Shown here in pieces: positions 9,720-47,181 of a stretch of 64,000 bases of DNA. Source of the stretch: Lytechinus pictus (taxonomy: Eukaryota); assembly GCF_037042905.1 (NCBI RefSeq), contig NC_087245.1:10666001-10730000 (forward strand). Direction: 5' to 3'. Made by a program: the position numbers and the translations under genes. The notes under the pieces were generated by a model that did no database searches, was not told the DNA's origin, and saw nothing but the letters and a program-made list of their open reading frames with translations. Within the stretch, counting starts at the first letter, position 1. Every line of letters starts with the position of its first letter.

Positions 9720-12700
9720 TGATTGATTTTATTCGTCAAGAATATCAAAGGAGATTACAATGAAATTGAAGAATACCTTGACAGGATAGCCCATGAAAGC
9801 CGAAAGGCTTATTTCCAATGGGGTCCTATAGTTAGTATAAAACATTAACACATTGTAACAAAAAGTATAAACTACGACAAGTACTGGAATATGGTTAAAA
9901 AAAATAATAAAATACATATATACATATCCATCAGTCAAATAATTTGCAAACATCTGAAGCAAACAACAATCTTCCTAATATATGAAACAAGATTATATTT
10001 TAACTTACCCTACATTATCTACAATACTAGAACCAAACTGTACAAAATGTGTGATTTTACTGGTAATACTGCTCTCGAGTAGCTTCCAGTTTTAGGTGCT
10101 TCTTTAATGCACTCTGAAATTGAGAAAATATTTTAACTGCTTTTACTTGATTAGGAAGAGCATTCCAAGATTGGATGCCATTAAAATAAAAAGTGTTCCC
10201 TATATGTCCTTCACGTTTTGGTAATACAAAATTAGAATTAGTATTTCGAGTATCGTACCTATGGATATTTGATACACGGGTGAAATTATTTGCTATATGA
10301 TGATCTAATGTATCCGAATAGAATATTTTATGCACGTGCATGGTGTAATACTAATTGTTGTGATCTGTGATCTGCATGAAGTAATCCTGCCTTTTCAAGT
10401 TCATTACATCCGACATGTGCTCTTGGTCCTAAAACATTTATGTATCTCACAATTTTATTTTGAATTATTCTTAGCTTTTTCTTATCCGTAACACCCAGAC
10501 TACCGTACCAAGCCGCAGTAGCATAGTCGAATATACATTGTATTAAAGCAAAGCATAAAATACGTCTAGACTTCATATTCAAACAGGTTTGATATCTATA
10601 CAAAAATTTTAAGCGTAAATTTGCCTTTTTGACGATTGAGTCTACCAAACCCGTCCATGATAGGTTACTTGTTAAATTAATTCCCAAATATTTCACTGAA
10701 TCTTTTCTGTCAATTACCTGATTATTATATGAAACCTTGAAATCGTGTGTATATCTTAACTTTCGTTTCGAACAAAATAAAATGCTTTCTGTTTTCCCAA
10801 CGTGTAAACTAAGCTTATTGTCAGACATCCATTCAATGCAATTTGCCAAGTTTTTTATCAATTATCTTGGGATTTGTATCTGAATATAGCAAGACACTAT
10901 CATCAGCATATAAAATTAATTTAGATTCGTTAATACAAGTACACATATCATTGATGTAAGACATAAAAAGAATGGGGCCTAAAATGCTTCCTTGAGGGAC
11001 TCCGCATTTAATAGGCAGTGAATCAGAAAGAACCGTCTACATGGTAACTACTTGATGACGGTTAGATAAATATGATCTAGACCATGTCACACATGCAGAG
11101 TCTAAACCCATCACTTCTAATTTCTTTAAAAGTACGTTATGATTTACAGTATCAAAGGCTTTTTGTAAGTCTAGGAGAACCATTCCAACCATGCGCCTAT
11201 GTGAAATTTCGTTCCTGATAAAATCTGTTAAATGTATTAAACAAGTTTCAGTGGAATATCCGTTACGAAAGCCGGACTGAAATTTATATATTAGCTTGGT
11301 TTCTTGAAAGTATTTCTCCACTTGAGCATGAACAGATTTTTCCAAGACACTACACTTAATACACTTATAGGCCTATAATTACTAACGTCAATTTTATCTT
11401 TCTTTTTATGTAGCGGGGTAACTTTTTGCAAATTTCATATCATCGGGAAAGGTAGAAGACATAAGAGATAAATTAATAACATAATTCAAAGGTTTGTACA
11501 AATTTCTTGCCCCATCTTTTAAAAATCTTGCAGATATCATATCTAGACCAGTACTTTTTGATATTTTCAACCTATTTAGTTTATCTAAAACAAATTTTTC
11601 TGGAACAGGGGAAAAATGAAAACTACCTTTTGAAATACCCTTTTCTTCATAAAACTTTTGAAATTGGTGACTTTCTGCATGAAATTTGTTTGTATTTAGT
11701 GGTAATTTACAAACTAGCTTGTCGGCCACAGTCGTAAAATAACGATTAAACTCATTTGCAATTTTAGCCTTATCATGACTTAATTCACCTTGCACATTAA
11801 TAACCGTTTTTTGATCAGATTTCCCTTTACTTTTTAGACCTAAACCTTTCAAATTCTTCCACAATTTTCTAGAGTCATGTTTGTTTTCTTCGATTTGTTC
11901 TTGAAAGTATTCGTTTTTGGCACTTCTTACCTTCCTTTGAACTAAATTCCTTAAAACTTTATATTTTCTTTCATGGTCTAAATTGCCAATGTTCCTATTC
12001 ATACTTTTGTAAGCTACATTTCTCTTTTTAATTAAAACAATAATTTCATGGTTCATCCATTTTTCAGTTGATTGCTTAATTCTTACCTCTTTCAGAGGTG
12101 CGCTCATATTTATTACTGATAAGAATATAGATTTAAAAATTTCCCAAGCCATATTTACATCGTTACATTCAGTTACCTTGGACCAGTCTGATCGGGATAA
12201 CTTTAAGTTGAAATTATCTACATTATAACCTTTTAATCTCCTGATGGATACAGTTCTATGGTGCCAAAATACGGGCCTAACAATCTTTCTTGAACAATAA
12301 ATTAATAAATGATCACTTATACCTAGGTCAATAACATCACTTTGTCTATTATGCTCTACTTTACTACATAATATGTGATCTATCAGGGAGGAAGATGTCT
12401 GAGTTGTACGTGTGGGTAGCTTTACAGGTTGGCTTAAACCACTTAGATTAAGTATATTATCATATTTCTGGGATAAAGGAGACTTTTTCGAAAGGCAAAT
12501 ATTCATGTCCCCTAAGACTATAATCTCAACATCTTTTAAATTTTTTTCTAAAGTGTCAGAGAGTGATTCAATGAAATTATCATCTATAGAGGGTCTGTAA
12601 AGAGCACCCAGTGTAATGGGCTTTGCCCGAGGCAATAGAATATCGATCCACAATGATTCAATATTTCTTGAAGTCAAGTCTTCTCTTATATTAAATGCAA

Positions 12701-12790
12701 TGTCGTTTCTTATGTAGAGACAAACACCACCACCTAGCCTACATTCACGATCGTTACGTAATATACAGTATCCAGCTATACATACCTCTT
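9720..12790 (-). mobile_element. 5'-truncated, frameshifted CR1/L2-group LINE (APE endonuclease plus reverse transcriptase)
   Basis: Endonuclease motifs RNDR..GGGVCLYI, GDMNI, SLIDHI and SDH. RT motifs QSGFR, LDLQKAFDTVNH, GVPQGSILGP (about 10975-11004), YADD (10899-10910) and KYLGI. 3' UTR ends in aataaa followed by (atca)n near 9720. Several frameshifts. Confidence 0.93.
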
Positions 12791-12899
12791 GCTAACCACC
12801 GACCTTTCCATTGGTTGGTCGTATTTTCAGTAGACATTTTATTTTTGTTAATTTTTTTTGTTCTGAAATGAAATGACTAAAATAGGATAAAATGAATAA

Positions 12900-14940: not shown

Positions 14941-16460
14941 AAGAAAAGGGAATGAGAAGAAGATGACGAAGAAGAAAATTAATAAGAACATTAAAGGTAG
15001 GTCGTATGTGAGTGATATAAAGGGATTTCCCCGTATGGTTGTGCCACTGCTGATTCTCTCTTCAGCACGGAGATTGTTCTTGACAACGCTTTATAATTAA
15101 ATCAATACTGGTTTTATTGTGTTTCCAAGCTAAATGTACTATCGATAGAGTAGGAAGATGAGAGAGATAACTAAATACAAATTGAATGATATATTTCGAT
15201 TTTTTTATAACAAAACATGACATTGTTTTTAAAAGAATGATGTCGTAAAAGTGTGTGGAGGAGAAGGGGTGGGGTGTTAGTGGGCGATAGTGAGGCAAAA
15301 TTGATTTGTTAGCAAAGCGGCTGCGCATGTGCACTTCATCACTCTTGATTCTCATCATTCCCTTCGCAAATACATTCAATGTGTAAATTGTGAAAGGCAC
15401 ACACGGTTACATTGACTTGAATGAACAGCGCTGCTCCGACTTTCAAATTTGCGCCACACAATTTCACGAAAAGGTTTCACAGGTTCTTAGAGTCCAGGTA
15501 AAGATCTTGTTTTGTATTATAATTAATTTTTTGACATTTAATTGATAATTGGTGTGGTTTACTAGCAATTTTATTTGGTTATGTGGTAGGTGCTTTGGTC
15601 TCAGCGTTATATTTTTTATTTAGTATTTTGGTTAGGGTGCCAATTTAAGAAGATCATTACAAGAAAGCATCTAGTCCTCTCCTGAATCGCACACTCATCA
15701 TTTCTAGAGTTGAAAGACTTCGGGAATGACATAGTTGGATCCAGGGGACCGAATCAGCCGCAGACCCCTATTTGCAGCGCCTCCCAAAAATGGGAGGAAA
15801 GGAGAAAAATGAAGGAAAAGGGGAAACGAAAGGAGATTAGAAAAAGAGGGAAAAGAAAAAAAACAGGAATAAGAAAAGTGAACAAAAATAAAAGAAACAG
15901 AGGCATTGGAAAAAAAATATCTTCAGTTTACCAAATAGAAAATAAAATTCTACTCGTGTTTGCATTCCCTATTTAATGATACACATATCCGGTTCAAGAG
16001 GATTCAGTGGTGCTTAAAATAACTTAAGTCAATATACAACAAATATTTTTTTTTTAGCGTTTATTAATAATTTTGTTTAGTAAGATATGCATCATCATAG
16101 TCGTGCTCATGATTACATAAAGCACTTAGAAGTCTTAGGTTTTTATCTTTAAAATTTTCAGCTCTAACATTTGTATCTGTTTCATGATTTTGTCAAACAT
16201 CGCTTTAAATGTTCCTTTTCGGGTCGTTATATATCAAAGTCAGCTCTTGCTCGCACATTTTGCTCGGTGAGAAACGAATTATTTTAATGATTGCAAAAAC
16301 TGCTTAAAATCTCCCGTTTCAGATTTAAATCAACATTTTTAAACTTGCGCTTCTCGCTCGCATTATATGATGAGTGAAACATCATATTCTTTAATTGCTA
16401 CCAAAAAATAATTAAAATGTCCCCCTTCTCAGATCAGTATAATAGTGAACAAATGAAAAT

Positions 16461-16770
16461 GAGAGAATATAGATGCGTAGCTTCACTCAAGGTCCCTCAG
16501 ATCTGTCTTCCATTCTGAATCAAAGGTTGAAAATGCTTCCGCCGGGAATCGAACCCTGGTCCCTGGCTCTAAACGCCAATACCTTAACCACTAGACCACG
16601 GTGGCGGGCCAGCAGGAAGGCGAGACTGAGTTCAATTAACTGGCAGGCAAACTTTCAACCTTTTTATTGATTCTTTGTCTTTTTGGTGCAGATGAGTTAA
16701 TGAACAATGAGTAGCCGCGTGCCGAAGTTGGATCTCAGCTAATACAAGCATTCATCAGAAAGGGGACAAT
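16461..16770 (-). mobile_element. tRNA-carrying, (TA)n-adjacent repeat, divergent subtype
   Basis: Colinear homology with 25173-25500: gagagaa..gcgtagctt..caaggt..cag, then the tRNA, then ctttgtc..gaacaatga..agccgc..tgcc..ag.tggatc. Followed by (TA)n. Confidence 0.75.
16534..16605 (-). tRNA. tRNA-like gene or pseudogene with anticodon TTA (ochre-reading)
   Basis: GCCACCG TG GTCT AGTGGTTA AGGT A TTGGC GTTTAGA GCCAG GGAC CAGGG TTCGATT CCCGG CGGAAGC A, then TTTT. Two acceptor-stem mismatches and one T-stem mismatch. Confidence 0.6.
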
Positions 16771-16775
16771 ATATG

Positions 16776-16820
<45 letters not shown>

Positions 16821-16856: not shown

Positions 16857-17160
16857 ATCAGAAATGCGAAACAAATTCACAAGTAATGCAATTTTTGCAA
16901 TGCCAACAAGTTCTTTTATTCACTTTCCAAATTTTCGGTAGACATCTACCTTCTTTAGGGAAGATTCGTGAATTGTGACAAGTTTAAATGACAGTTCATT
17001 TAAACTTGACAGTTCATTTAAACTGTCATTTAAACTTGTCACAATTCACGAATCTTCCCCGAAGAAGGTAGATGTCTACCAAAAATTTGGAAATTAAATA
17101 AAATAACTTGTTGGCATTGCAAAAATTGCATTACTCGTGAATTTCTTTCGCATTTCTGAT
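16857..17160. mobile_element. Inverted pair of Penelope-like 3' ends with degenerate hammerhead ribozymes
   Basis: ~140-bp inverted arms between TA runs. HHR-like motifs at 16925-16962 (-) and 17055-17092 (+), with consensus ttcc CTGAAGA a ggtag atgt ctacc GAAA ATTT ggaa. Confidence 0.75.
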
Positions 17161-25134: not shown

Positions 25135-25179
<45 letters not shown>

Positions 25180-25254
25180 CAATGGTAGGCGTAGCTTAAT
25201 GCAAGGTTCCCCAGAGCTATCTACCCTTTGGAAGAATTGGTGATGCCGAAAAAA

Positions 25255-25326
25255 TGTCTCTGCCGGGAATCGAACCCGGGCCCCCAGCTTTGAACGACGG
25301 TGCCTTAACCACTAGACCACAGAGAC
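25255..25326 (-). tRNA. 72-nt tRNA-like gene, anticodon TCA (opal-reading, not Sec-type fold), copy 1
   Basis: GTCTCTG TG GTCT AGTGGTTA AGGC A CCGTC GTTCAAA GCTGG GGGC CCGGG TTCGATT CCCGG CAGAGAC A, then TTTTTT. One anticodon-stem mismatch. Confidence 0.75.
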
Positions 25327-25662
25327 GGGTTAGTGGCTAGGGCGACCCCGATCCGATTGACCGTCAGATAGACAGATTTTCGACAATATACCAATTATAA
25401 TTTCCTTTGTCGGGTGAAGGTGGGTTTTGAACAATGACAAGCCGCCATGCCTCAGCTGGATCAAAGGTATTGCTTTGATACAGTACACGTATGGGAGAAA
25501 GTATACAAATGTGTGAAGTTATTAATGTACAACAGCTTTGGCAACTCTTTTATTTAAATATTGTGTGAAAGAAATGGATGAAGAGAACAATGGTAGGCGT
25601 AGCTTAAATCAAGGTTCCCCAGACTTATCTACCCTTTGGAAAAATTGGTGATGCCGAAAAAA

Positions 25663-25734
25663 TGTCTCTGCCGGGAATCGAACCCGGGCCCCCAGCTTTG
25701 AACGCCGGTGCCTTAACCACAAGACCACAGAGAC
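25663..25734 (-). tRNA. 72-nt tRNA-like gene, anticodon TCA, copy 2
   Basis: Same fold with a fully paired anticodon stem CCGGC/GCTGG. A14 is replaced by T. Followed by a T6 terminator. Confidence 0.75.
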
Positions 25735-25903
25735 GGGTTAGTGGCTAGGGCGACCCCGATCTGATTGACCGACAGATTTTTGACACTATACCAATTATAA
25801 TTTCCTTTGTCGGGTGAAGGTGGGTTTTGAACAATGACAAGCCGCCATGCCTTTTAAATAAAAGAGTTGCCAAAGCTGTTGTACATTTATAACTTCACAC
25901 ACA

Positions 25904-33151: not shown

Positions 33152-33486
33152 GTAAGTCTAAACAGGGAATTGCCTTAGTAACAATTTAAGTTAGGAAGCT
33201 GGACTTGTAAACACGCACATATGCGTTCATTCTAGATTATAATGGAGTAAAAGCGTTTGTATGGTGTCATATTATGTAGGCCTACCTCTGTTTGGAATGA
33301 CTGTATTGATGGCACAGGCTTCTCCATCACAGTAAATTATGCATGTTAAATCACGTTAATCTATTGTGTTTTAAAAATTTGACGATTTTTAGTCACCATT
33401 ATCTGCTTACACTGTCTACAATCATCATACACCACTGGTTCGTAAATATCCGAGGGGTTCTTTTTGTTTACCTTTCTTCTGTGCAG

Positions 33487-34471
33487 GACCAGGCATATGG
33501 TGCCACCGCCGTAATTCCCCTTGAATATCTAGGTCAGGAATATTTTGTATCAGTTCGAGCTGGACCAAGCCCTGGAGAAGTGGTAATCTCTTCAACCGGT
33601 GAAGCAACTTTGATTTGCCTGACACCCAATGGTCCTTTTACATACAATGGCATCAGTTATTCTGCTCCCTTATCGAGTGTCCAATTTGAGATTCCGGCCT
33701 GGTATCAAATGGTAATCACAAGCTCATCGAACGACTTTACAGGGTCAAGAATACTGGCAAACACGACCGTTTCTGTCGTTAGTGGGTCGGCTTGTGCTGT
33801 CAGTCCAAGGCAAGGAAACGAATCGTGTGACTATGCCATGGAACATCTGATGCCTTACGATAAATGGGGAACCATCTTTAATGTACCGCCATTTATAGAT
33901 GGGGTTTCTACGGGTTTCTATGTCCAGATTACCGCTGGGAGAGACGATACGACTATCAACGTCGATGGTACTGTAATCAGTCTTGATCAAGGACAGACTG
34001 AGAGCCGAGATGTCAACAACATCAACGACATTCTACGGATCACCAGTGATAAGCCCATCCAAGTAGTGCAGGTACTCGATGGAGCCACATCAATGGTTGT
34101 CATTCCACCTGAAGAACAATACACCCTCCAGACTTCTTACTTTCGTTTATCGGGTGCTGCATCCCTCGATTTATATTTTAACCACTTTTTTACAATCGTG
34201 GCTCCGTGCTCGTCCAGTTCAGGGATCACCGTTACTTCTTCAGCTTCTGGTTTCGCTAATTTGGCACCGTCTTCAACAATTAATGGTGGCATGATGTGTG
34301 CCTATTTTCACCAAGGAACCGAATTAGCTACCTATACGGTCTCGCAATACGATCCCGATGGGGCCTTCTTTGTTGTTAATTATGGAAGATACGGCACTGC
34401 AGGATATGCTTATGTGGGTGCTCAAAAGTACGAAACACAAAGATGCACAGACTATCAGACTATAACTTGTA
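33487..34471 (+). CDS. Secreted IgGFc-binding/mucin/PAN protein, coding exon 3 (IgGFc-binding N-terminal domain)
   Basis: Acceptor cttctgtgcag. Motifs VIPLEYLGQEYFV, CDYAMEHLMPYDKWG, ITSDKPIQVVQ, MVVIPPEEQY and GYAYVG are typical of FCGBP N-terminal domains. Donor gtgagt (phase 1). Confidence 0.92.
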
Positions 34472-34616
34472 GTGAGTATAAATATTATTATTGTTATGTA
34501 CTAAATGTATTAAAGAAAGAGCATTCACCCCGACGTTGTGTTGTAAAAATTGTCTTTTACTAACATCACGCGGCACAATATGCTACATCTAACTGGACAA
34601 CTGTTATTCATTTAAG

Positions 34617-38315: not shown

Positions 38316-41302
38316 ATATCCTCAACAACATTACACTCCAATACCAAATGAGTGATATTCTACTATTTATCCCAGACCTCGACAATATTACACTCCAATA
38401 CCAAATGAGTGATAGTCGACTATTTATCCGAGACCTCGACAACATTACTCTCCAATACCAAATGAGTGATATTCGACTATTTATCCCAGACCTCAACAAC
38501 ATTACACTCCAATACCAAATTAGTGATATTCGACTATTTATCCCAGAGTTCAACAACATTACACTCCAATACCAAATGAGTGATATTCGACTATTTATCC
38601 CAGACTCCAACAACATTACACTCCAATACCAAATGAGTGATATTCGACTATTTATCCCAAACCTCAACAACATTACACTCCAATACTAAATGAGTGATAT
38701 TCGACTATTCATCCAAGACCTCAACAACATTACACTCCAATACCAAATGAGTGATAGTCGACTATTTATCCCAGACTTCAACAACATTACACTCCAATAC
38801 CAAATGAGTGATATTCGACTATTTATCCCAGACTTCAACAACATTACACTCCAATACCAAATGAGTGATATTCGACTATTTATCCGAGACCTCGACAATA
38901 TTACACTCCAATACCAAATGAGTGATATTCGACTATTTATCCAAGACCTCAACAACATTACACTCCAATACCAAATGAGTGATATTCGACTATTTATCCC
39001 AGACTTCAACAACATTACACTCCAATACCAAATGAGTGATATTCGACTAATTATCCCAGACTTCAACAACATTACACTCCAATACCAAATGAGTGATATT
39101 CGACTATTTATCCGAGACCTCGACAATATTACACTCCAATACCAAATGAGTGATATTCGACTATTTATCCAAGACCTCAACAACATTACACTCCAATACC
39201 AAATGAGTGATATTCGACTATTTATCCAAACCCTCAACAACATGACACTCCAATACCAAATGAGCGATATTCGACTATTTATCCAAGACCTCAACAACAT
39301 TACACTCCAATACCAAATGAGTGATATTCGACTATTTATCACAGACTTCAACAACATTACACTCCAATACCAAATGAGTGATATTCGACTATTTATCCGA
39401 GACCTCAACAACATTACACTCCAATACCAAATGAGTGATATTCGACTATTTATCCCAGACCTCAACAACATTACACTCCAATACCAAATGAGTGATAGTC
39501 GACTAATTATCCAAACCCTCAACAACATTACACTCCAATACCAAATGAGTGATATTTGACTATTTATCCCAGACTTCAACAACATTACACTCCAATACCA
39601 AATGAGTGATATTTGACTATTTATCCCAGACTTCAACAATATTACACTCCTCCAATACCAAATGAGTGATATTCGACTAATTATCCAAACCCTCAACAAC
39701 ATTACACTCCAATACCAAATGAGTGATATTTGACTATTTATCCCAGACTTCAACAACATTACACTCCAATACCAAATGAGTGATATTTGACTATTTATCC
39801 CAGACTTCAACAATATTACACTCCAATACCAAATGAGTGATATTTGACTATTTATCCCAGACTTCAACAACTTTACACTCCAATACCAAATGAGTGATAT
39901 TCGACTAATTATCCAAACCCTCAACAACATTACACTCCAATACCAAATGAGTGATATTTGACTACATGTATTTATCCCAGACTTCAACAACATTACACTC
40001 CAATACCAAATGAGTGATATTTGACTATTTATCCCAGACTTCAACAACATTACACTCCAATACCAAATGAGTGATATTTGACTATTTATCCCAGACCTCA
40101 ACAACATTACACTCCAATACCAAATGAGTGATATTCGACTAATTATCCAAACCCTCAACAACATTACACTCCAATACCAAATGAGTGATATTTGACTATT
40201 TATCCCAGACTTCAACAACATTACACTCCAATACCAAATGAGTGATATTCGACTATTTATCCAAGACCTCAAAAACATTACACTCCAATACCAAATGAGT
40301 GATATTTGACTATTTATCCCAGACCTCAACAACATTACACTCCAATACCAAATGAGTGATATTGACTATTTATCCCAGATTTCAACAACATTACACTCCA
40401 ATACCAAATGAGTGATATTTGACTATTTATCCCAGACTTCAACAACTTTACACTCCAATACCAAATGAGTGATATTCGACTAATTATCCAAACCCTCAAC
40501 AACATTACACTCCAATACCAAATGAGTGATATTTGACTACATGTATTTATCCAAACCCTCAACAACATTACACTCCAATACCAAATGAGTGATATTTGAC
40601 TATTTATCCCAGACCTCAACAACATTACACTCCAATACCAAATGAGTGATATTCGACTAATTATCCAAACCCTCAACAACATTACACTCCAATACCAAAT
40701 GAGTGATATTTGACTATTTATCCCAGACTTCAACAACATTACACTCCAATACCAAATGAGTGATATTCGACTATTTATCCAAGACCTCAAAAACATTACA
40801 CTCCAATACCAAATGAGTGATATTTGACTATTTATCCCAGACCTCAACAACATTACACTCCAATAACAAATGAGTGATATTCGACTATTTATCCCAGATT
40901 TCAACAACATTACACTCCAATACCAAATGAGTGATATTTGACTATTTATCCCAGACTTCAACAACATTACACTCCAATACCAAATGAGTGATATTCGACT
41001 ATTTATCCAAGACCTCAAAAACATTACACTCCAATACCAAATGAGTGATATTTGACTATTTATCCCAGACCTCAACAACATTACACTCCAATACCAAATG
41101 AGTGATATTCGACTATTTATCCCAGATTTCAACAACATTACACTCCAATACCAAATGAGTGATATTTGACTATTTATCCCAGACCTCAACAACATTACAC
41201 TCCAATACCAAATGAGTGATATTTGAAAATTTATCCCAGACCTCTACAACATTACACTCCAATACCAAATGAGTGATATTCGACTATTTATCCCAGACCT
41301 CA
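38316..41302. repeat. 57-bp minisatellite, about 52 copies
   Basis: Unit ctcaacaacattacactccaataccaaatgagtgatattcgactatttatcccagac, highly homogeneous, with no spacers. Confidence 0.97.
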
Positions 41303-44006
41303 ATTGCCCCGACCACTATTTTACTCATATCGTTTGACACGACAGAGATGCAAAAGATAATGTATTTTCCAAATAGTTTTGTTGGAGATTAAGTGGTCGT
41401 CAGATCTTATATGTGGGAAATTCCTTGTTTGTTATTTCCCTTAACTAATGGTTTGCGTGTCATAACAGTTTCGTGGGTTTTCTGACAAAAAAAAATCTTC
41501 TTCGTACTAACCAAGCTATCAATATTACATTTGAAATATTCCTTTCTATTATTAATTTGATATCAAAGACGACAAATTGTCTAGTTAAAATTAATTATGA
41601 ATTTGCATTGAAGTCGACGTACGTCATCTCGATGATGGTGGGTACTCCACCTTTGAACTTTTAGGAGTGGGCGGCGTTATGGGGCATATAGTAGTCCAGC
41701 AGTTTTACCTTTCCTATAATACCAATAAGAGCAAATGAGGAAGTAGTAGATTATAAAGAAAAAAAAGGAAAGGAAGAAGAAGAAGAAATTAAAAAAAAAA
41801 CTTAAACCAAAACATTTATTTAAGAGTCTGGCAATGAGGGTGTATTATTTATTTCATTTTTTTGGGTGGGGTCGCTAGGCACCCTCTGTCCCTGTTAACG
41901 AGGGGAACAAGTGAAATTACCGGAGAATTAGCGAAAAGGAAGTCTTTAAAGATATATTCGATCTTTTTAAAATGGTGCAGAATTTAAAGGCACAATCGTT
42001 AAGCACCGTTTTTGTTTTCCCATATCCTGACAGTTAGAGCAAATCAAATCGCTTTCTGGTGGTTTATGTTTACGACTTCTTAGTGTGTCAATAAAATACT
42101 ATGTTTTGAATCGATGGCGTGTAACCAATGGTATATCCCCCTCCAAGAGCATGGCCAGGGCAACGATTTTTCACATTTTTGCTCTTAAAATAATGACGCT
42201 CAACAATAGAGATTTGCGGGAGAAACTTCAAATAGTTGTGTAGAAAGGAGACAATGACAACATTCATTCCATACAAGCATATTAGCTATATTCCGATTTA
42301 AATGTGTTTTATAAAGTTCATAAATGAGCACGTGAGGCCATAATCTAAGTTTCAGAAACAGTTTTTAGGATGTTTCAATTCTTTTGACACCGCTAGAACA
42401 ACTGACGCCGAACATTACCTTTGTACATCGCTGAAGCGCTTCGCACAGTATCTATGAAAAAATTACTCTAATTGCTGATTACTCTCCAGATTAGCAAAAG
42501 ACTTATCAGCATTTTAGTTTTGAATTTGTTTAGCCACTAACTAGTACCAGACTGTAAAAAGACTATAGTTTTATGATGAATATTGGTCCTGAGTTTTAAT
42601 AGGAACGCTGCATATTTTCTTTCACATAGAAATATAAATAAAATCAATATGTAAATATATGAATTTTAGCTAATGTGAAACATTCCATCCATTGCATATG
42701 AGGTTACAATATGAATATTCGGAAAGAATATTTTGATAATATCAAGTGTATACCAACTTAACTTAATATGCATTCTCTATCTCGGACTTGTCAAATCCAA
42801 AATCTATCATCTTTACAGAGCGCCATCTGTAGCTATGGACACATATTTATTATGCTGTACCTTTATTGTGAATACATGCATATAGGATATAAACACGAAA
42901 AAGTCACACCATCATTTCCTCAATACCTTAGTTGTTTAACGAATACCTTATTTGTTAGATGATTTTGGTTAAAACAAAACTACCGCAGTGTTCTAAACTC
43001 ATTTACCAACTTTTCATTGATCATTCAAGGCGCCCGTGAGTGATATGTATTGAAAACCAATGGCCACTTTTCAATAGCAAAAAAAAAGTTTACTTCTTCT
43101 GCCCAAATAATAGCTAATACACCTAGTAAAGATACTCCTTGCTGAGAATGTATCGTTTTATTTTCCCCTAAAAACCTTATTGGATTTTAAAGTTTCAAAA
43201 TTATGAAAAGATTAAAAATCCTTATTAGGCTTGCTGACCTCTGTTTTTGTTATTGTCATGAGTAGAGTAAGGGTCGTAGGATACATGATTAATATCAATG
43301 GCGTTTAATCATAAACCACAAGTATAATTCATCTAACATGTTGAAATTCTGGATCAAATCTCTAAACCTAAAATGTCAAATTAACCTTTTGACTTTTGAA
43401 AAGTAATTGTGCATTAAATGTGTGATTGCTCATTCATTATTTGACTGATAAACATAATTGTCACACAAAACTGTTATTTCATAAGTTTAGCAACACATTT
43501 GATCTTCAAAATTATGCATCTAGTACCAATTTCGTAGAATAAAATGTATATATATATATATTTGTGAAGACGAAAACATAGATTATTTTGTTAAATGGTT
43601 TATAACATTATACAAATACATATTACTGAATATTATACATTAGAATATTAAATCGATTATTCGACGAGCTACAACTTGGTGTTATTTGTCAGAACACATA
43701 TTCTTGTGGCGTTTGGCCAACTTGGTTGTAATATGTCGCAATATCGCATATTCTACTTTGATGTTGGTAGAATGAAATGATATAATGAATATATCATGAC
43801 TAACAGGATTTTGAAGTTTTAATTACCAAACTGTATAAGTACAAGAAAAATTGCGTACGAATTTAGTATTGTGTACTTTTTGCATTGTTAAATAACACCC
43901 AACGCTCTTCATTCGAAACGTTCCCTCTTTAATGATTTTCACCGCCATCAAGGAAAGGGGACGAGCCGTATTTACTGGCCAGCAGCCAATCATGTCAAGA
44001 TTCCTG

Positions 44007-44492: not shown

Positions 44493-45489
44493 GAGACCAC
44501 ATTGTGAAAGAACCACTTGACACAGGTTCTATTCTGCTTGTTTCGGGAAAATATAATAAAAATCAACACTCATCCTTTTAATTCTCTTTCCCTGCACTAA
44601 TGTAAATACTACTGGAGTGAAAACATAATGATAATTGAAAATCTGCAATTTGAGTAGCGATGTAACGTAACACACAGAACGTCAAGTTAATAACTTTACT
44701 TACATACCCCAAAATGATTTCCGTCAATTGTTTGAAAGCGAAGGCCATTGAAAGCATCGTGTAAGTTTGTGTAGAGATTTCTTTCGAATCTTATCTTTTT
44801 TAATTATCGTTTAAAAACCAACGCATCGACATCCGATGTACGTGGTTTTGAAGCTACTTAATATGTTCAAACGTTAATAATCATAATGCGGAAAATTCTA
44901 TAGATATATTTTGTTTTTAGTAAGAACTCATATTATGACAATCTTCCATTTTTCTTTTCTAAAAATCAATAAATAATCAATTTTCATGATCGCAGAAGTG
45001 TGTTGACAATTTTCATAGGAAATATAATTAAGGTGATATGGTGCTAAAAAGAGAATTTCATTTAGAAATTATCAACACAAACTATGCGTAGTAAATTAAT
45101 ATTGATGCAGATATTTTAGTTTCATTTATTTGAAGACCTACACATAATAATTACACATTATGTAAGGTTTACCGAGAGTACATTTAGTCTTACGAAATTT
45201 TGATACCGTATTTAGGCTTAAATCATGGCAGCATTCTTGCCACTACTACTCATTATCTTCACAGCTATATTAAGATAGCAGGGGATTAAGAATAAAGTCA
45301 TGATTTTCAAAATGTAACGTTAGTACATGTATAATAGAGAAACTGAGGTGTAGCAACGGGCACACATTATATAAATAAGTGAATGGAATGAATATAAATT
45401 TTTACTTTAGTCTGTTGTAGCATCCGGACCACATGTTCTTATTCATTTAAGGTCTTAGCTTATATATATATATATATATATATATACAG

Positions 45490-45534
<45 letters not shown>

Positions 45535-45535
<1 letters not shown>

Positions 45536-47096
45536 ACAAAATACAAGGTGAATAAAACAACCGTAGAGAGAAAAGTTGATCAAATTTTCGCCCATAGGGC
45601 TTCATCAGGAAATGATGAATTTATTAGTCAAGAGCACCAAGAAACGCAGTGCTCAAAACGCAAGGCGTAAAAAACAACAGGCTAAAAGATAAAACGTGAA
45701 GCGCAACAGTACAAATAAAAAGAGAGAAAGAGAAAGAGAAAAACAGAAAACAGAAAGAAAGGGGAAAAAAGAAAGAAGAACAGAAGAAGAAGAAGAAGAA
45801 AAAGCCGGGGAGACAAAAGGAAGAGAGAAAAGGGAAAAGGAAAACGACTAGAGGAAAAAAGAGAGATGGAGAGAAGGGGGCAGAAATAGAGGACACCTGG
45901 GGAGAAAGAAGTAAAAGAAAAAAAAAGAAGAAAAAGAATTAAAAAAAGAAAAAGAAAGAAAAAGAAAGGGACCAAAGGGTACCTGGCATATCCAAGGCTC
46001 TTTCACATGGGTCACCAAGGATTGCATATATTCAGAGACTCCAACTCTCCCGCTTTCGGCGGGAGATCTCCCGCCGAAAGTCTATTTTCGCAAAATATCC
46101 CGTTCTCCCGCTTGAGATTTAATATCTCCCGCCCAAGCACTTTGTCTCCCGCTTAAGATGTATTTCCTCCCGCTTAAAATGATCTATCACAAAAATGTAT
46201 GGGTTTGTAAATGCTTATCAATTTCATATGGCAAGTGCATGAACAGTGCAGTGATATATAAAAAATCAGTTGTATTAAGCCAAAATAAATGATTTGATTC
46301 ATTGATTGTTATTCACTTAGTGCCATCATAATAATAATAAAATAGCCTAGAATAGCACGAGAGAGCATTTAGAACCCTACAGCTTCTAGAACCCTACAGC
46401 ATCTGTTAGTACCCCGGCCACAAGGCCTGACTTCGCGCTTTGCGTTCTTGGTGTGCGCGAAGCGCACGTCAAGTTGGAGTCTCCAGTTTGCGAGGGGATC
46501 TAGGCGGGAGAATCTCCAGATCAGACGGTGCTTTGGGTTGGAGTCTCTGTATATTGCATCTACTGCTCCAAGTGCAAGGCGATCTACATCGGAGAAACGA
46601 AGAGGAGGCTTGCTGACAGAGTGACGGAACATCTTCGCTCCATCATGATCAAGTCAGCAGGGTTGCCGGTAGCTCACCATTTTACCCAACCGGACCATAA
46701 CATCGGGTACTTCAAGTTGTGCGTTCTTCTGACTGGTTTTCGTTCAGATGGGGCAAGGAAAGAGAAGGAGGAACGCATCATTCACTCTCTCGGCTCTCTC
46801 TAACCTGATGGAATGAATGTGTCTTTCCACTCCTTTCCCGTGTTTTGATTTCTTTCTCCCCCCTCTCTCTTTCTCTCTCTCTCTTTTCTTTTGTACTGTT
46901 ACGCTTCGCGTTTTATCTTTTAGCGCGTTGTTTTTTACGCACTGCGTTTCGTGGTGCTCTTGACTAATAAATTCATCATTTCCTGATGAAGCCCTATGGG
47001 CGAAAATTTGATCAATTTTTCTCTCAACGGTTGTTTTATTCACCTTGTATTTTGCTTTATACTACCACAACCGAAGCAGGACCTTCATTTTTATTG

Positions 47097-47098
<2 letters not shown>
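45535..47098 (+). mobile_element. Neptune-like Penelope element 3' fragment with inverted pseudo-LTR, between (TA)n tracts
   Basis: GIY-YIG with CxxC: GSFTWVTKDCIY|CIYCSKCKAIYIGETKRRLADRVTEH..VAHHF..LGSL*PDGMN. Inverted arms at about 45535-45740 and 46865-47055. HHR core CTGATGA a gccc tat gggc GAAA at 46983 (+) and about 45580-45610 (-). Confidence 0.9.
46033..46549. mobile_element. hAT-like MITE with a 6-bp TSD inside the Penelope GIY-YIG
   Basis: TIRs cagagactccaac / gttggagtctctg, TSD tatatt, subterminal ctcccgc repeats. Removing it restores the host reading frame. Confidence 0.85.
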
Positions 47099-47132
<34 letters not shown>

Positions 47133-47181
47133 AGAAACAAGGTTGAAACTTTCATGCTTTAATCCAACAAAATTTATTTTG

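Follow-up and report, generated by a model that had tools for sequence, protein, structure and literature searches.

Animal non-LTR retrozymes are short, non-coding tandem monomers with abundant RNA and a link to Penelope elements (Cervera and de la Pena 2020, PMC7229834; Li, Clavereau and Pollet 2026, bioRxiv 10.64898/2026.07.22.740005). RtcB has been proposed to close their circles, as is proposed here for a family of repeats in a sea urchin, and has been reported to close retrozyme monomers in vitro (PMC7229834). In plants, the retrozyme circles are described as hiding the ribozyme with a complementary strand. Penelope-like elements of the Naiad and Neptune style show 5' truncation, partial tandems, inversion of the 5' copy, two 3' ends that arise from a tail, and (TA)n targets; Naiads, which share this insertion style, are reported to lack canonical hammerheads (Craig et al. 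2021, PMC8557442). The tRNA intronic circular RNAs are produced by TSEN and RtcB from an intron at position 37/38, including engineered aptamer introns; a G-C proximal pair is tolerated, and weak helices are favored (Schmidt et al. 2019, PMC6614914). The 3' and 5' halves of circularly permuted tRNA genes are joined via a bulge-helix-bulge into a circular intermediate, which is opened by RNase P and RNase Z to yield the tRNA, and tandem tRNA transcripts can adopt the permuted fold in vitro (PMC3978253). The anticodon UCA, which is also the consensus of the family described here, is found in tRNA-Sec and opal suppressors; tRNA-Sec is marked by a 9/4 fold, a long variable arm, a 6-bp D stem and G73 (PMC5330540).

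The locus compared with these systems lies in the window, the whole stretch of 64,000 nucleotides of Lytechinus pictus DNA that was analyzed. It is a decayed, truncated copy of the older of two subfamilies, B, of a non-coding tandem repeat of about 405 bp. The copy, its parts and a young insertion of the other subfamily, A, are:

16441..16774, minus strand: 5'-truncated single subfamily B monomer, positions 41-388 of the 402-nt consensus, 90% identity to the consensus
16530..16533, minus strand: T run directly after the discriminator, T4 in this copy and T6 in both consensuses; terminator-like for Pol III, and paired in the predicted rod
16534..16605, minus strand: 72-nt tRNA-like cloverleaf, tRNA-Glu-derived body with rewritten acceptor stem and anticodon arm (ARAGORN, Rfam)
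16568..16574, minus strand: anticodon loop G32-U-U-[C>U]-A-G-A38, with 16571 the private C35U and 16574 the G32
16775..16817, no strand: (TA)n microsatellite at the truncated 5' end of the B copy, from the window sequence
25174..25901, minus strand: young subfamily A insertion between (TA)n/(GA)n tracts, with UCA tRNAs at 25255-25326 and 25663-25734

Of the two 3' ends that the family prefers, the B copy has the first. The first-pass annotation had described it as colinear with, and diverged from, the unit at 25.2 kb, and this is confirmed (BLASTN, 73% over 141 nt, E 1e-17) with the extent corrected to 16441-16774. In the A insertion, a single 408-bp period is accompanied by a second unit that is truncated at its 5' end (25582-25852) and by an inverted tail (25853-25901). 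Both ARAGORN and Rfam detect a 72-nt tRNA in the B copy, with anticodon UUA and 44 bits, while the two UCA tRNAs of the A insertion score 51.6 and 56.5 bits; by these programs and by alignment, the shared tRNA length, the G32-U33 loop and the stem and flank letters are as first written. The window tRNA differs from the B consensus tRNA by five changes (U4A, C25U, C35U, C49A, and G69A), and because three of these disrupt stem pairs its acceptor mismatches are attributed to decay. The stems had been called partly compensatory, which is true between the A and B consensuses (three double changes) and not of the acceptor mismatches in the window copy.

Other features of the window were recorded as well. 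A near-perfect palindrome with 150-bp arms (92%, 4-nt spacer) occupies 16857-17160, just past the (TA)n adjoining the B copy. A 57-bp tandem repeat of 52 copies at 38320-41303 has long open frames on both strands, with no Pfam match in the two frames scanned. The open frame at 33310-34563 (plus strand) matches IgGFc_binding (E 7e-36), and that at 11406-12791 (minus strand) matches an APE-type endonuclease and is likely a LINE remnant. A Penelope-like remnant lies between (TA)n tracts at 45461-47146, with a GIY-YIG match at 46549-46791 (plus strand) and inverted arms at 45530-45756 and 46849-47061.

The consensus monomers are 406 nt (A) and 402 nt (B), and the non-coding tandem units measure 402-408 bp in arrays of 1 to more than 24. 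Subfamily A copies form head-to-tail arrays with variable and often inverted 5' ends; most subfamily B copies occur singly or as inverted pairs, and L010 contains a partial tandem. Both share two 3' sites, separated by about 55 nt and frequently located at (TA)n: 52 of the 70 scored A ends fall in two clusters and 50 lie beside a microsatellite, and 32 of 55 B ends fall in the same two regions, with 15 beside a microsatellite. These insertion marks (5' truncation, tandem, inversion, two 3' ends, and (TA)n) match those of Penelope-like elements, and A, B and autonomous Penelope-like elements are often found back to back in one microsatellite (L016/L080, L012, L183, L185). Unlike Penelope-like elements, the family has an internal tRNA and a rod, and no 3'-end sequence link was found: of the 149 GIY-YIG matches in the genome, 30 loci were read with 1.5 kb on each side, giving co-insertion only and no 3' end of an autonomous partner, among loci that were of the C-terminal-endonuclease types and did not include Naiad 3' ends. 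The long arrays are of subfamily A, head-to-tail with monomers about 98% identical, at G000:C28 from about 719,000 to 957,400 (L153, L154, L156, L157, L204, L205) and from C2:8,866,155 onward (L198). The C28 array, which was sampled, appears to be about 240 kb and has diagnostic alleles in common with the C2 array.

Searches of the 812-Mb genome with the window copy gave at least 56 matches, which, leaving aside the copy itself, have 72-95% identity, with 40 of 147 candidates scored. No third subfamily appeared in the searches, which gave just A mutants, B copies, older A-like intermediates and tRNA-Gly genes; the older A-like copies L069, L070 and L261 carry B-type letters at some positions of the flank blocks and of the acceptor stem, and their loop is still GUUCAAA. 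The 34 matches of a metagenome scan with the second flank block all lacked the family tRNA and flank and were taken as chance. In the Rfam tRNA search of the genome, the 30 loci read held tRNA-Lys-type genes alone, and a tandem tRNA-Lys cluster at G000:C4:9.70-9.74 Mb (L124-L143) includes a degenerate variant with the anticodon UUA. Rfam searches for a ribozyme, at the gathering threshold and at E<=10, gave only tRNA; the scan at E=10 covered four loci (one A array and three B loci), and permuted or unknown ribozymes may escape it. Hammerhead, HDV and twister consensus motifs, compared by eye with the flank blocks, gave no fit that held in both subfamilies. A tRNA-derived SINE was rejected too: the tRNA is internal and not a 5' head, a T6 follows it, and the units are tandem and circularly permuted. 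A separate tRNA-like head, probably of a SINE family (L002:627-701, L019:41-112, L034:2009-2081), shares D-arm sequence and a similar UUCAA loop with the family tRNA, a resemblance that suggests a common tRNA-Glu origin. The family works like a retrozyme with no ribozyme detected. It is unlike retrozymes in that Rfam finds none, that a full tRNA sits where the processing signal would be, and that the circularity of its RNA is putative. No description of the element or of a tRNA-spliced retroelement was found in the literature covered, which did not extend to Repbase, Dfam, subscription journals or supplements.

The UUA anticodon proved to be private to the window copy. After three tRNA-Gly rows were removed from the 41 obtained by pooling all fetched loci, the 38 distinct B tRNA copies have 32 UCA (one with a deletion adjoining the loop), 2 UCU, 1 UAA, 1 UCG, 1 deleted and 1 UUA, the last being the window copy. 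In subfamily A there are 2,027 sites with an intact loop, and the variants (G32 22, U34 3, C35 23, nine of them UUA, and A37 7) track mutation bias and do not separate splicing from the rival models. The consensus anticodon of both subfamilies is UCA, probably a one-base slip of the tRNA-Glu(UUC) loop, and the UUA of the window copy is an ordinary decay mutation of it, C35U. Thus the divergent second subtype reported by the first-pass annotation exists, as subfamily B, but UUA is not its anticodon. Across 27 independent B loci, substitutions in the tRNA (170/2103) equal those in the flanks (543/6474) at 0.081 and 0.084 per site (p=0.68), so the inserted copies decay neutrally; the anticodon has 4/83 substitutions (p=0.32 against the flank rate). 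The loop reads G-U-U-C-A-R-A in both consensuses, and the identity of six of its seven letters has P 0.17-0.21 at flank rates. Selection to keep a stop-reading loop had also been proposed; these sequence comparisons do not support it, the conservation being within chance. G32 is present in A and in 34 of the 38 B copies, and argues against decoding because more than 99% of tRNAs are reported to carry a pyrimidine at this position (PMC5372741). The family tRNA is also unlike tRNA-Sec and opal suppressors, being 72 nt long with a 7/5 fold, a 4-nt variable loop, a 4-bp D stem, an A discriminator (A73) and G32, in about 2,000 decaying copies.

Between the consensuses the result differs from that among inserted copies. 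The A and B tRNAs are identical at 62 of 72 positions compared with 203 of 318 in the flanks (p=1.5e-4), so a tRNA better kept than its surroundings is found at this level and not among the insertions. Eight of the ten differences fall within stems, where all 21 pairs of the cloverleaf remain intact, with three double changes (2-70, 6-66, and 28-42) and two single changes, as counted on 16 copies. Random placement of eight stem changes keeps all pairs with P 0.0002-0.024, and keeps all pairs with three double changes at P<=0.0016; the claim that the cloverleaf was kept across old subfamilies is upheld by these counts. Both consensuses have an intact cloverleaf and the window copy does not. The A and B consensuses are identical to host tRNA-Glu(UUC) at 48/72 and 45/72 positions; in A the match covers positions 6-21 and 45-65, and the acceptor stem and anticodon arm have been rewritten. 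Acceptor and anticodon stems are not required for promoter function alone.

Variants common to every copy within one insertion were carried by its template. In 37 A loci with several units per insertion, 35 of them with at least two tRNAs, such variants are rarer in the tRNA (9/2509) than outside it (97/9121; p=5e-4, or p=0.012 after removing 20 positions used in picking some loci), while variants discordant among the units of one insertion show no tRNA depletion (p=0.35). Counted by distinct alleles the depletion is not significant (6/72 vs 49/322, p=0.19). Four of these six distinct tRNA alleles come from L152 (G000:C21:12039711 and 12040148), where both A units share UUA (C35U) and three other tRNA changes, and two stem pairs are broken in both, so a damaged template can be copied. 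Between the joined units of L152 lies a short palindromic insert containing TA, as though copying had begun again on the same template. The RNA fold of the repeat family was under selection.

The flanks take part in this fold. In the window copy the relevant segments are:

16475..16499, minus strand: second conserved flank block, predicted partner strand of the first (fold)
16606..16672, minus strand: antisense arms; predicted partners are the D arm, the T arm, the 3' strand of the acceptor and the trailer (fold)
16701..16734, minus strand: first conserved flank block, with the second block as the predicted partner of its 3' part (fold)

The A and B monomers, folded separately, give the same predicted rod with a small branched domain (z scores -6.3 and -4.4). 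The independent B fold reproduces exactly 82 of the 118 mappable A rod pairs, and 98 of the 118 can form in B (12 with double and 19 with single changes) compared with 35-54 when the sequences are slid. The 67 nt just upstream are the antisense of the tRNA's D arm, T arm and trailer, and in each subfamily they have changed in step with the trailer; in the predicted rod, which lies 23 (A) and 28 (B) kcal/mol below the local cloverleaf, these arms hide the tRNA apart from the anticodon arm, which alone keeps its cloverleaf pairing. Where a plant retrozyme circle hides its ribozyme, the window family is predicted to hide a tRNA. The 5' part of the first flank block is predicted to pair with the first hairpin domain of the monomer, a partner lost in the truncated window copy. 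In the folds of both subfamilies, the suggestion that the flank blocks are cis elements is borne out in the sense of predicted mutual pairing within a conserved rod. As an outgroup, subfamily B reveals the compensatory retention of the cloverleaf and the whole rod, and narrows the loop to G32, U33, U34, C35, A36, purine 37 and A38, a pattern that suits a splicing substrate better than a decoder.

RNA of the family was examined in X21 and X22, rRNA-depleted, long-insert libraries of one study, and in X24 from a second organism. Records matching the A monomer make up about 1% of X21 (90,127 of 8.71 M) and X22 (74,962 of 8.25 M), almost wholly from one strand, which for a library of the usual type is that of the tRNA. 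Depth in X21 is 20-44 thousand throughout the A monomer, head-to-tail joints number 15,641 in X21 and 12,688 in X22, and no sense-strand end was found in the A RNA of either library, including at the tRNA borders. Such one-stranded, end-free, head-to-tail RNA fits circles, but read-through of long genomic arrays would give the same. On a near-consensus B stretch the X21 depth over the tRNA reaches 38,800, almost entirely from reads that carry A-type letters and flanks, and is about 6 at most on B-only flanks; all 41,121 X21 reads on the stretch align partly and continue into an unlike, mostly A-type flank. Subfamily B is near silent in RNA. X24 gave 1,760 more diverged reads on the A monomer, whose tRNA changes among the rows listed are A68G and G29A, with pairing kept, and none in the anticodon; microsatellite loose ends are among the best-supported rows of X24 and absent from those of X21.

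The mechanism that best accommodates these results is tRNA splicing of the family RNA into unit-length circles that are copied by Penelope enzymes, to which a probability of roughly 45% is given. Pol III would read past the first T run to give a transcript from one tRNA (n) to the next (n+1), the outer halves of the two would form a tRNA body, and the 405-nt rod would be an intron at 37/38. The two anticodon arms would swap strands, with G32(n):C35(n+1) as an inverted anticodon-intron (A-I) pair, U.U pairs behind it and 3-nt bulges A36-R37-A38. TSEN would cut and RtcB would close the circle, the antisense arms would shield it from RNase P and RNase Z, and a Penelope-type reverse transcriptase would likely copy circles into (TA)n. 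Cutting, ligation and the circularity of A RNA are modeled steps. The tRNA fold would then be kept because the host splicing endonuclease and ligase act on it and not for stop reading, and the stop anticodon would be a by-product, with C35 held by pairing to G32. The intron would differ from those of tRNA intronic circles in being 405 nt, mobile, and the holder of its own tRNA halves; compared with permuted tRNA circles, the opening by RNase P and RNase Z is predicted to be blocked by the antisense arms.

Folding and published experiments bear on these steps in both directions. In the unconstrained n-to-n+1 fold of both subfamilies the outer acceptor stem has p ~1 and the T arm of n+1 has 0.95; in B the D stem of the first unit forms weakly (p 0.09). 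The swapped-arm pre-tRNA lies 2.8 (A) and 5.9 (B) kcal/mol above the minimum. The trans acceptor stem persists in 24-25 of 25 shuffles of the antisense arms, so its prediction shows no role for them, and this goes against their being its driver. Position 32 is at -6 from the putative 5' site and the next-unit C35 at -3 from the 3' site, which would match A-I geometry. As a matter of sequence alone, G32 and the next-unit C35 are complementary in both consensuses (G.U in the window copy), a match expected by chance in 1 of 4 cases. In the model this pair costs about 5 kcal/mol, forcing it gives 7.8 (A) and 11.5 (B) kcal/mol above the minimum compared with 5.9 for one host pre-tRNA-Tyr, and a competing 33:37/34:36 register scores better. 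Human TSEN is reported to cut an inverted G32:C substrate at both sites (PMC8479045). In fly cells a G-C A-I pair gives normal intron circles and G-U almost nothing; stronger helices work worse in the fly reporter, and unpairing the two middle helix pairs inhibits circles (Schmidt et al. 2019, PMC6614914). The middle pairs of the family's candidate splice helix are U.U, which counts against splicing given that inhibition; the one host pre-tRNA-Tyr compared (n=1) also has U.U adjoining its A-I pair. A further obstacle for Pol III is T6, plus T5 in A.

An explanation with appreciably less in its favor, and on the whole unlikely, is that the repeat is Penelope-driven and its tRNA works both as a promoter for Pol III and as a shape signal recognized by RNase P or Z, La, the CCA enzyme or the reverse transcriptase, with circles or multimers arising without TSEN and the G32:C35 match a coincidence. 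It is favored by A and B box regions that are identical between the subfamilies and, in A, lie in the stretches matching host tRNA-Glu (6-21 and 45-65), by T6 after the discriminator in both subfamilies, by the energy model, which disfavors the splice-ready pairs, and by L152, whose template was copied with a broken tRNA. Against it, the tRNA borders show no RNA ends, the rod is more stable than the cloverleaf by 23-28 kcal/mol when its own antisense arms precede the unit, and a free, compensated anticodon arm with a persistent G32 is left unexplained.

That the tRNA is a relic captured once, with the repeat spread as a satellite or by read-through RNA and its conservation due to a short history or to selection on the rod alone, is improbable. 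The even decay of inserted copies, the existence of large arrays, the distinct-allele test (p=0.19) and the pairing with the antisense arms, which could supply part of the tRNA constraint, are in line with such a history, but the three double changes (2-70, 6-66 and 28-42) left the cloverleaf paired (P<=0.0016), and in a tRNA-Tyr that is a passive passenger of another repeat, anticodon-stem pairs have been lost. That other repeat is dispersed, at least 2.3 kb long, and carries an intron-containing tRNA-Tyr with damaged anticodon-stem pairs (L265-L272, L274; e.g. G000:C1:14694145, C3:10297437); nine of the ten tRNA-Tyr loci read belong to it.

A working stop-codon suppressor tRNA (for UGA, and for UAA here) selected for read-through, for example of a partner element's frame, is very improbable: the UCA consensus of A and B, the anticodon unchanged among the second-organism reads listed, the complete Pol III cassette and the in-frame UGA reported in some Naiad elements of clams and spiders (PMC8557442) are outweighed by G32 and the absence of tRNA-Sec features, by a UUA that is private to a copy with three broken pairs, by anticodon conservation within chance, and by the X21 reads on B, which run into mostly A-type flank; libraries of this kind are blind to a mature 75-nt tRNA.

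Splicing by the host thus keeps its place as the preferred reading. In its full form, put forward tentatively and at somewhat less than even odds, the family would be a selfish tRNA intron: a mobile, ribozyme-free RNA circle with permuted tRNA halves, excised and closed by the host tRNA-splicing machinery via a strand-swapped bulge-helix-bulge, hidden from RNase P and RNase Z by its antisense arms, making up about 1% of non-ribosomal reads and copied by a Penelope reverse transcriptase, with a UGA-anticodon tRNA, which G32 likely disables, as by-product. If true, this would be a new way of making retrozyme-like RNA circles, in which host TSEN replaces the ribozyme, and would give tRNA-intron circles a parasitic role. 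It would also account for thousands of false "SeC/suppressor" tRNA calls in the genome, and would provide a natural high-yield circularization cassette.
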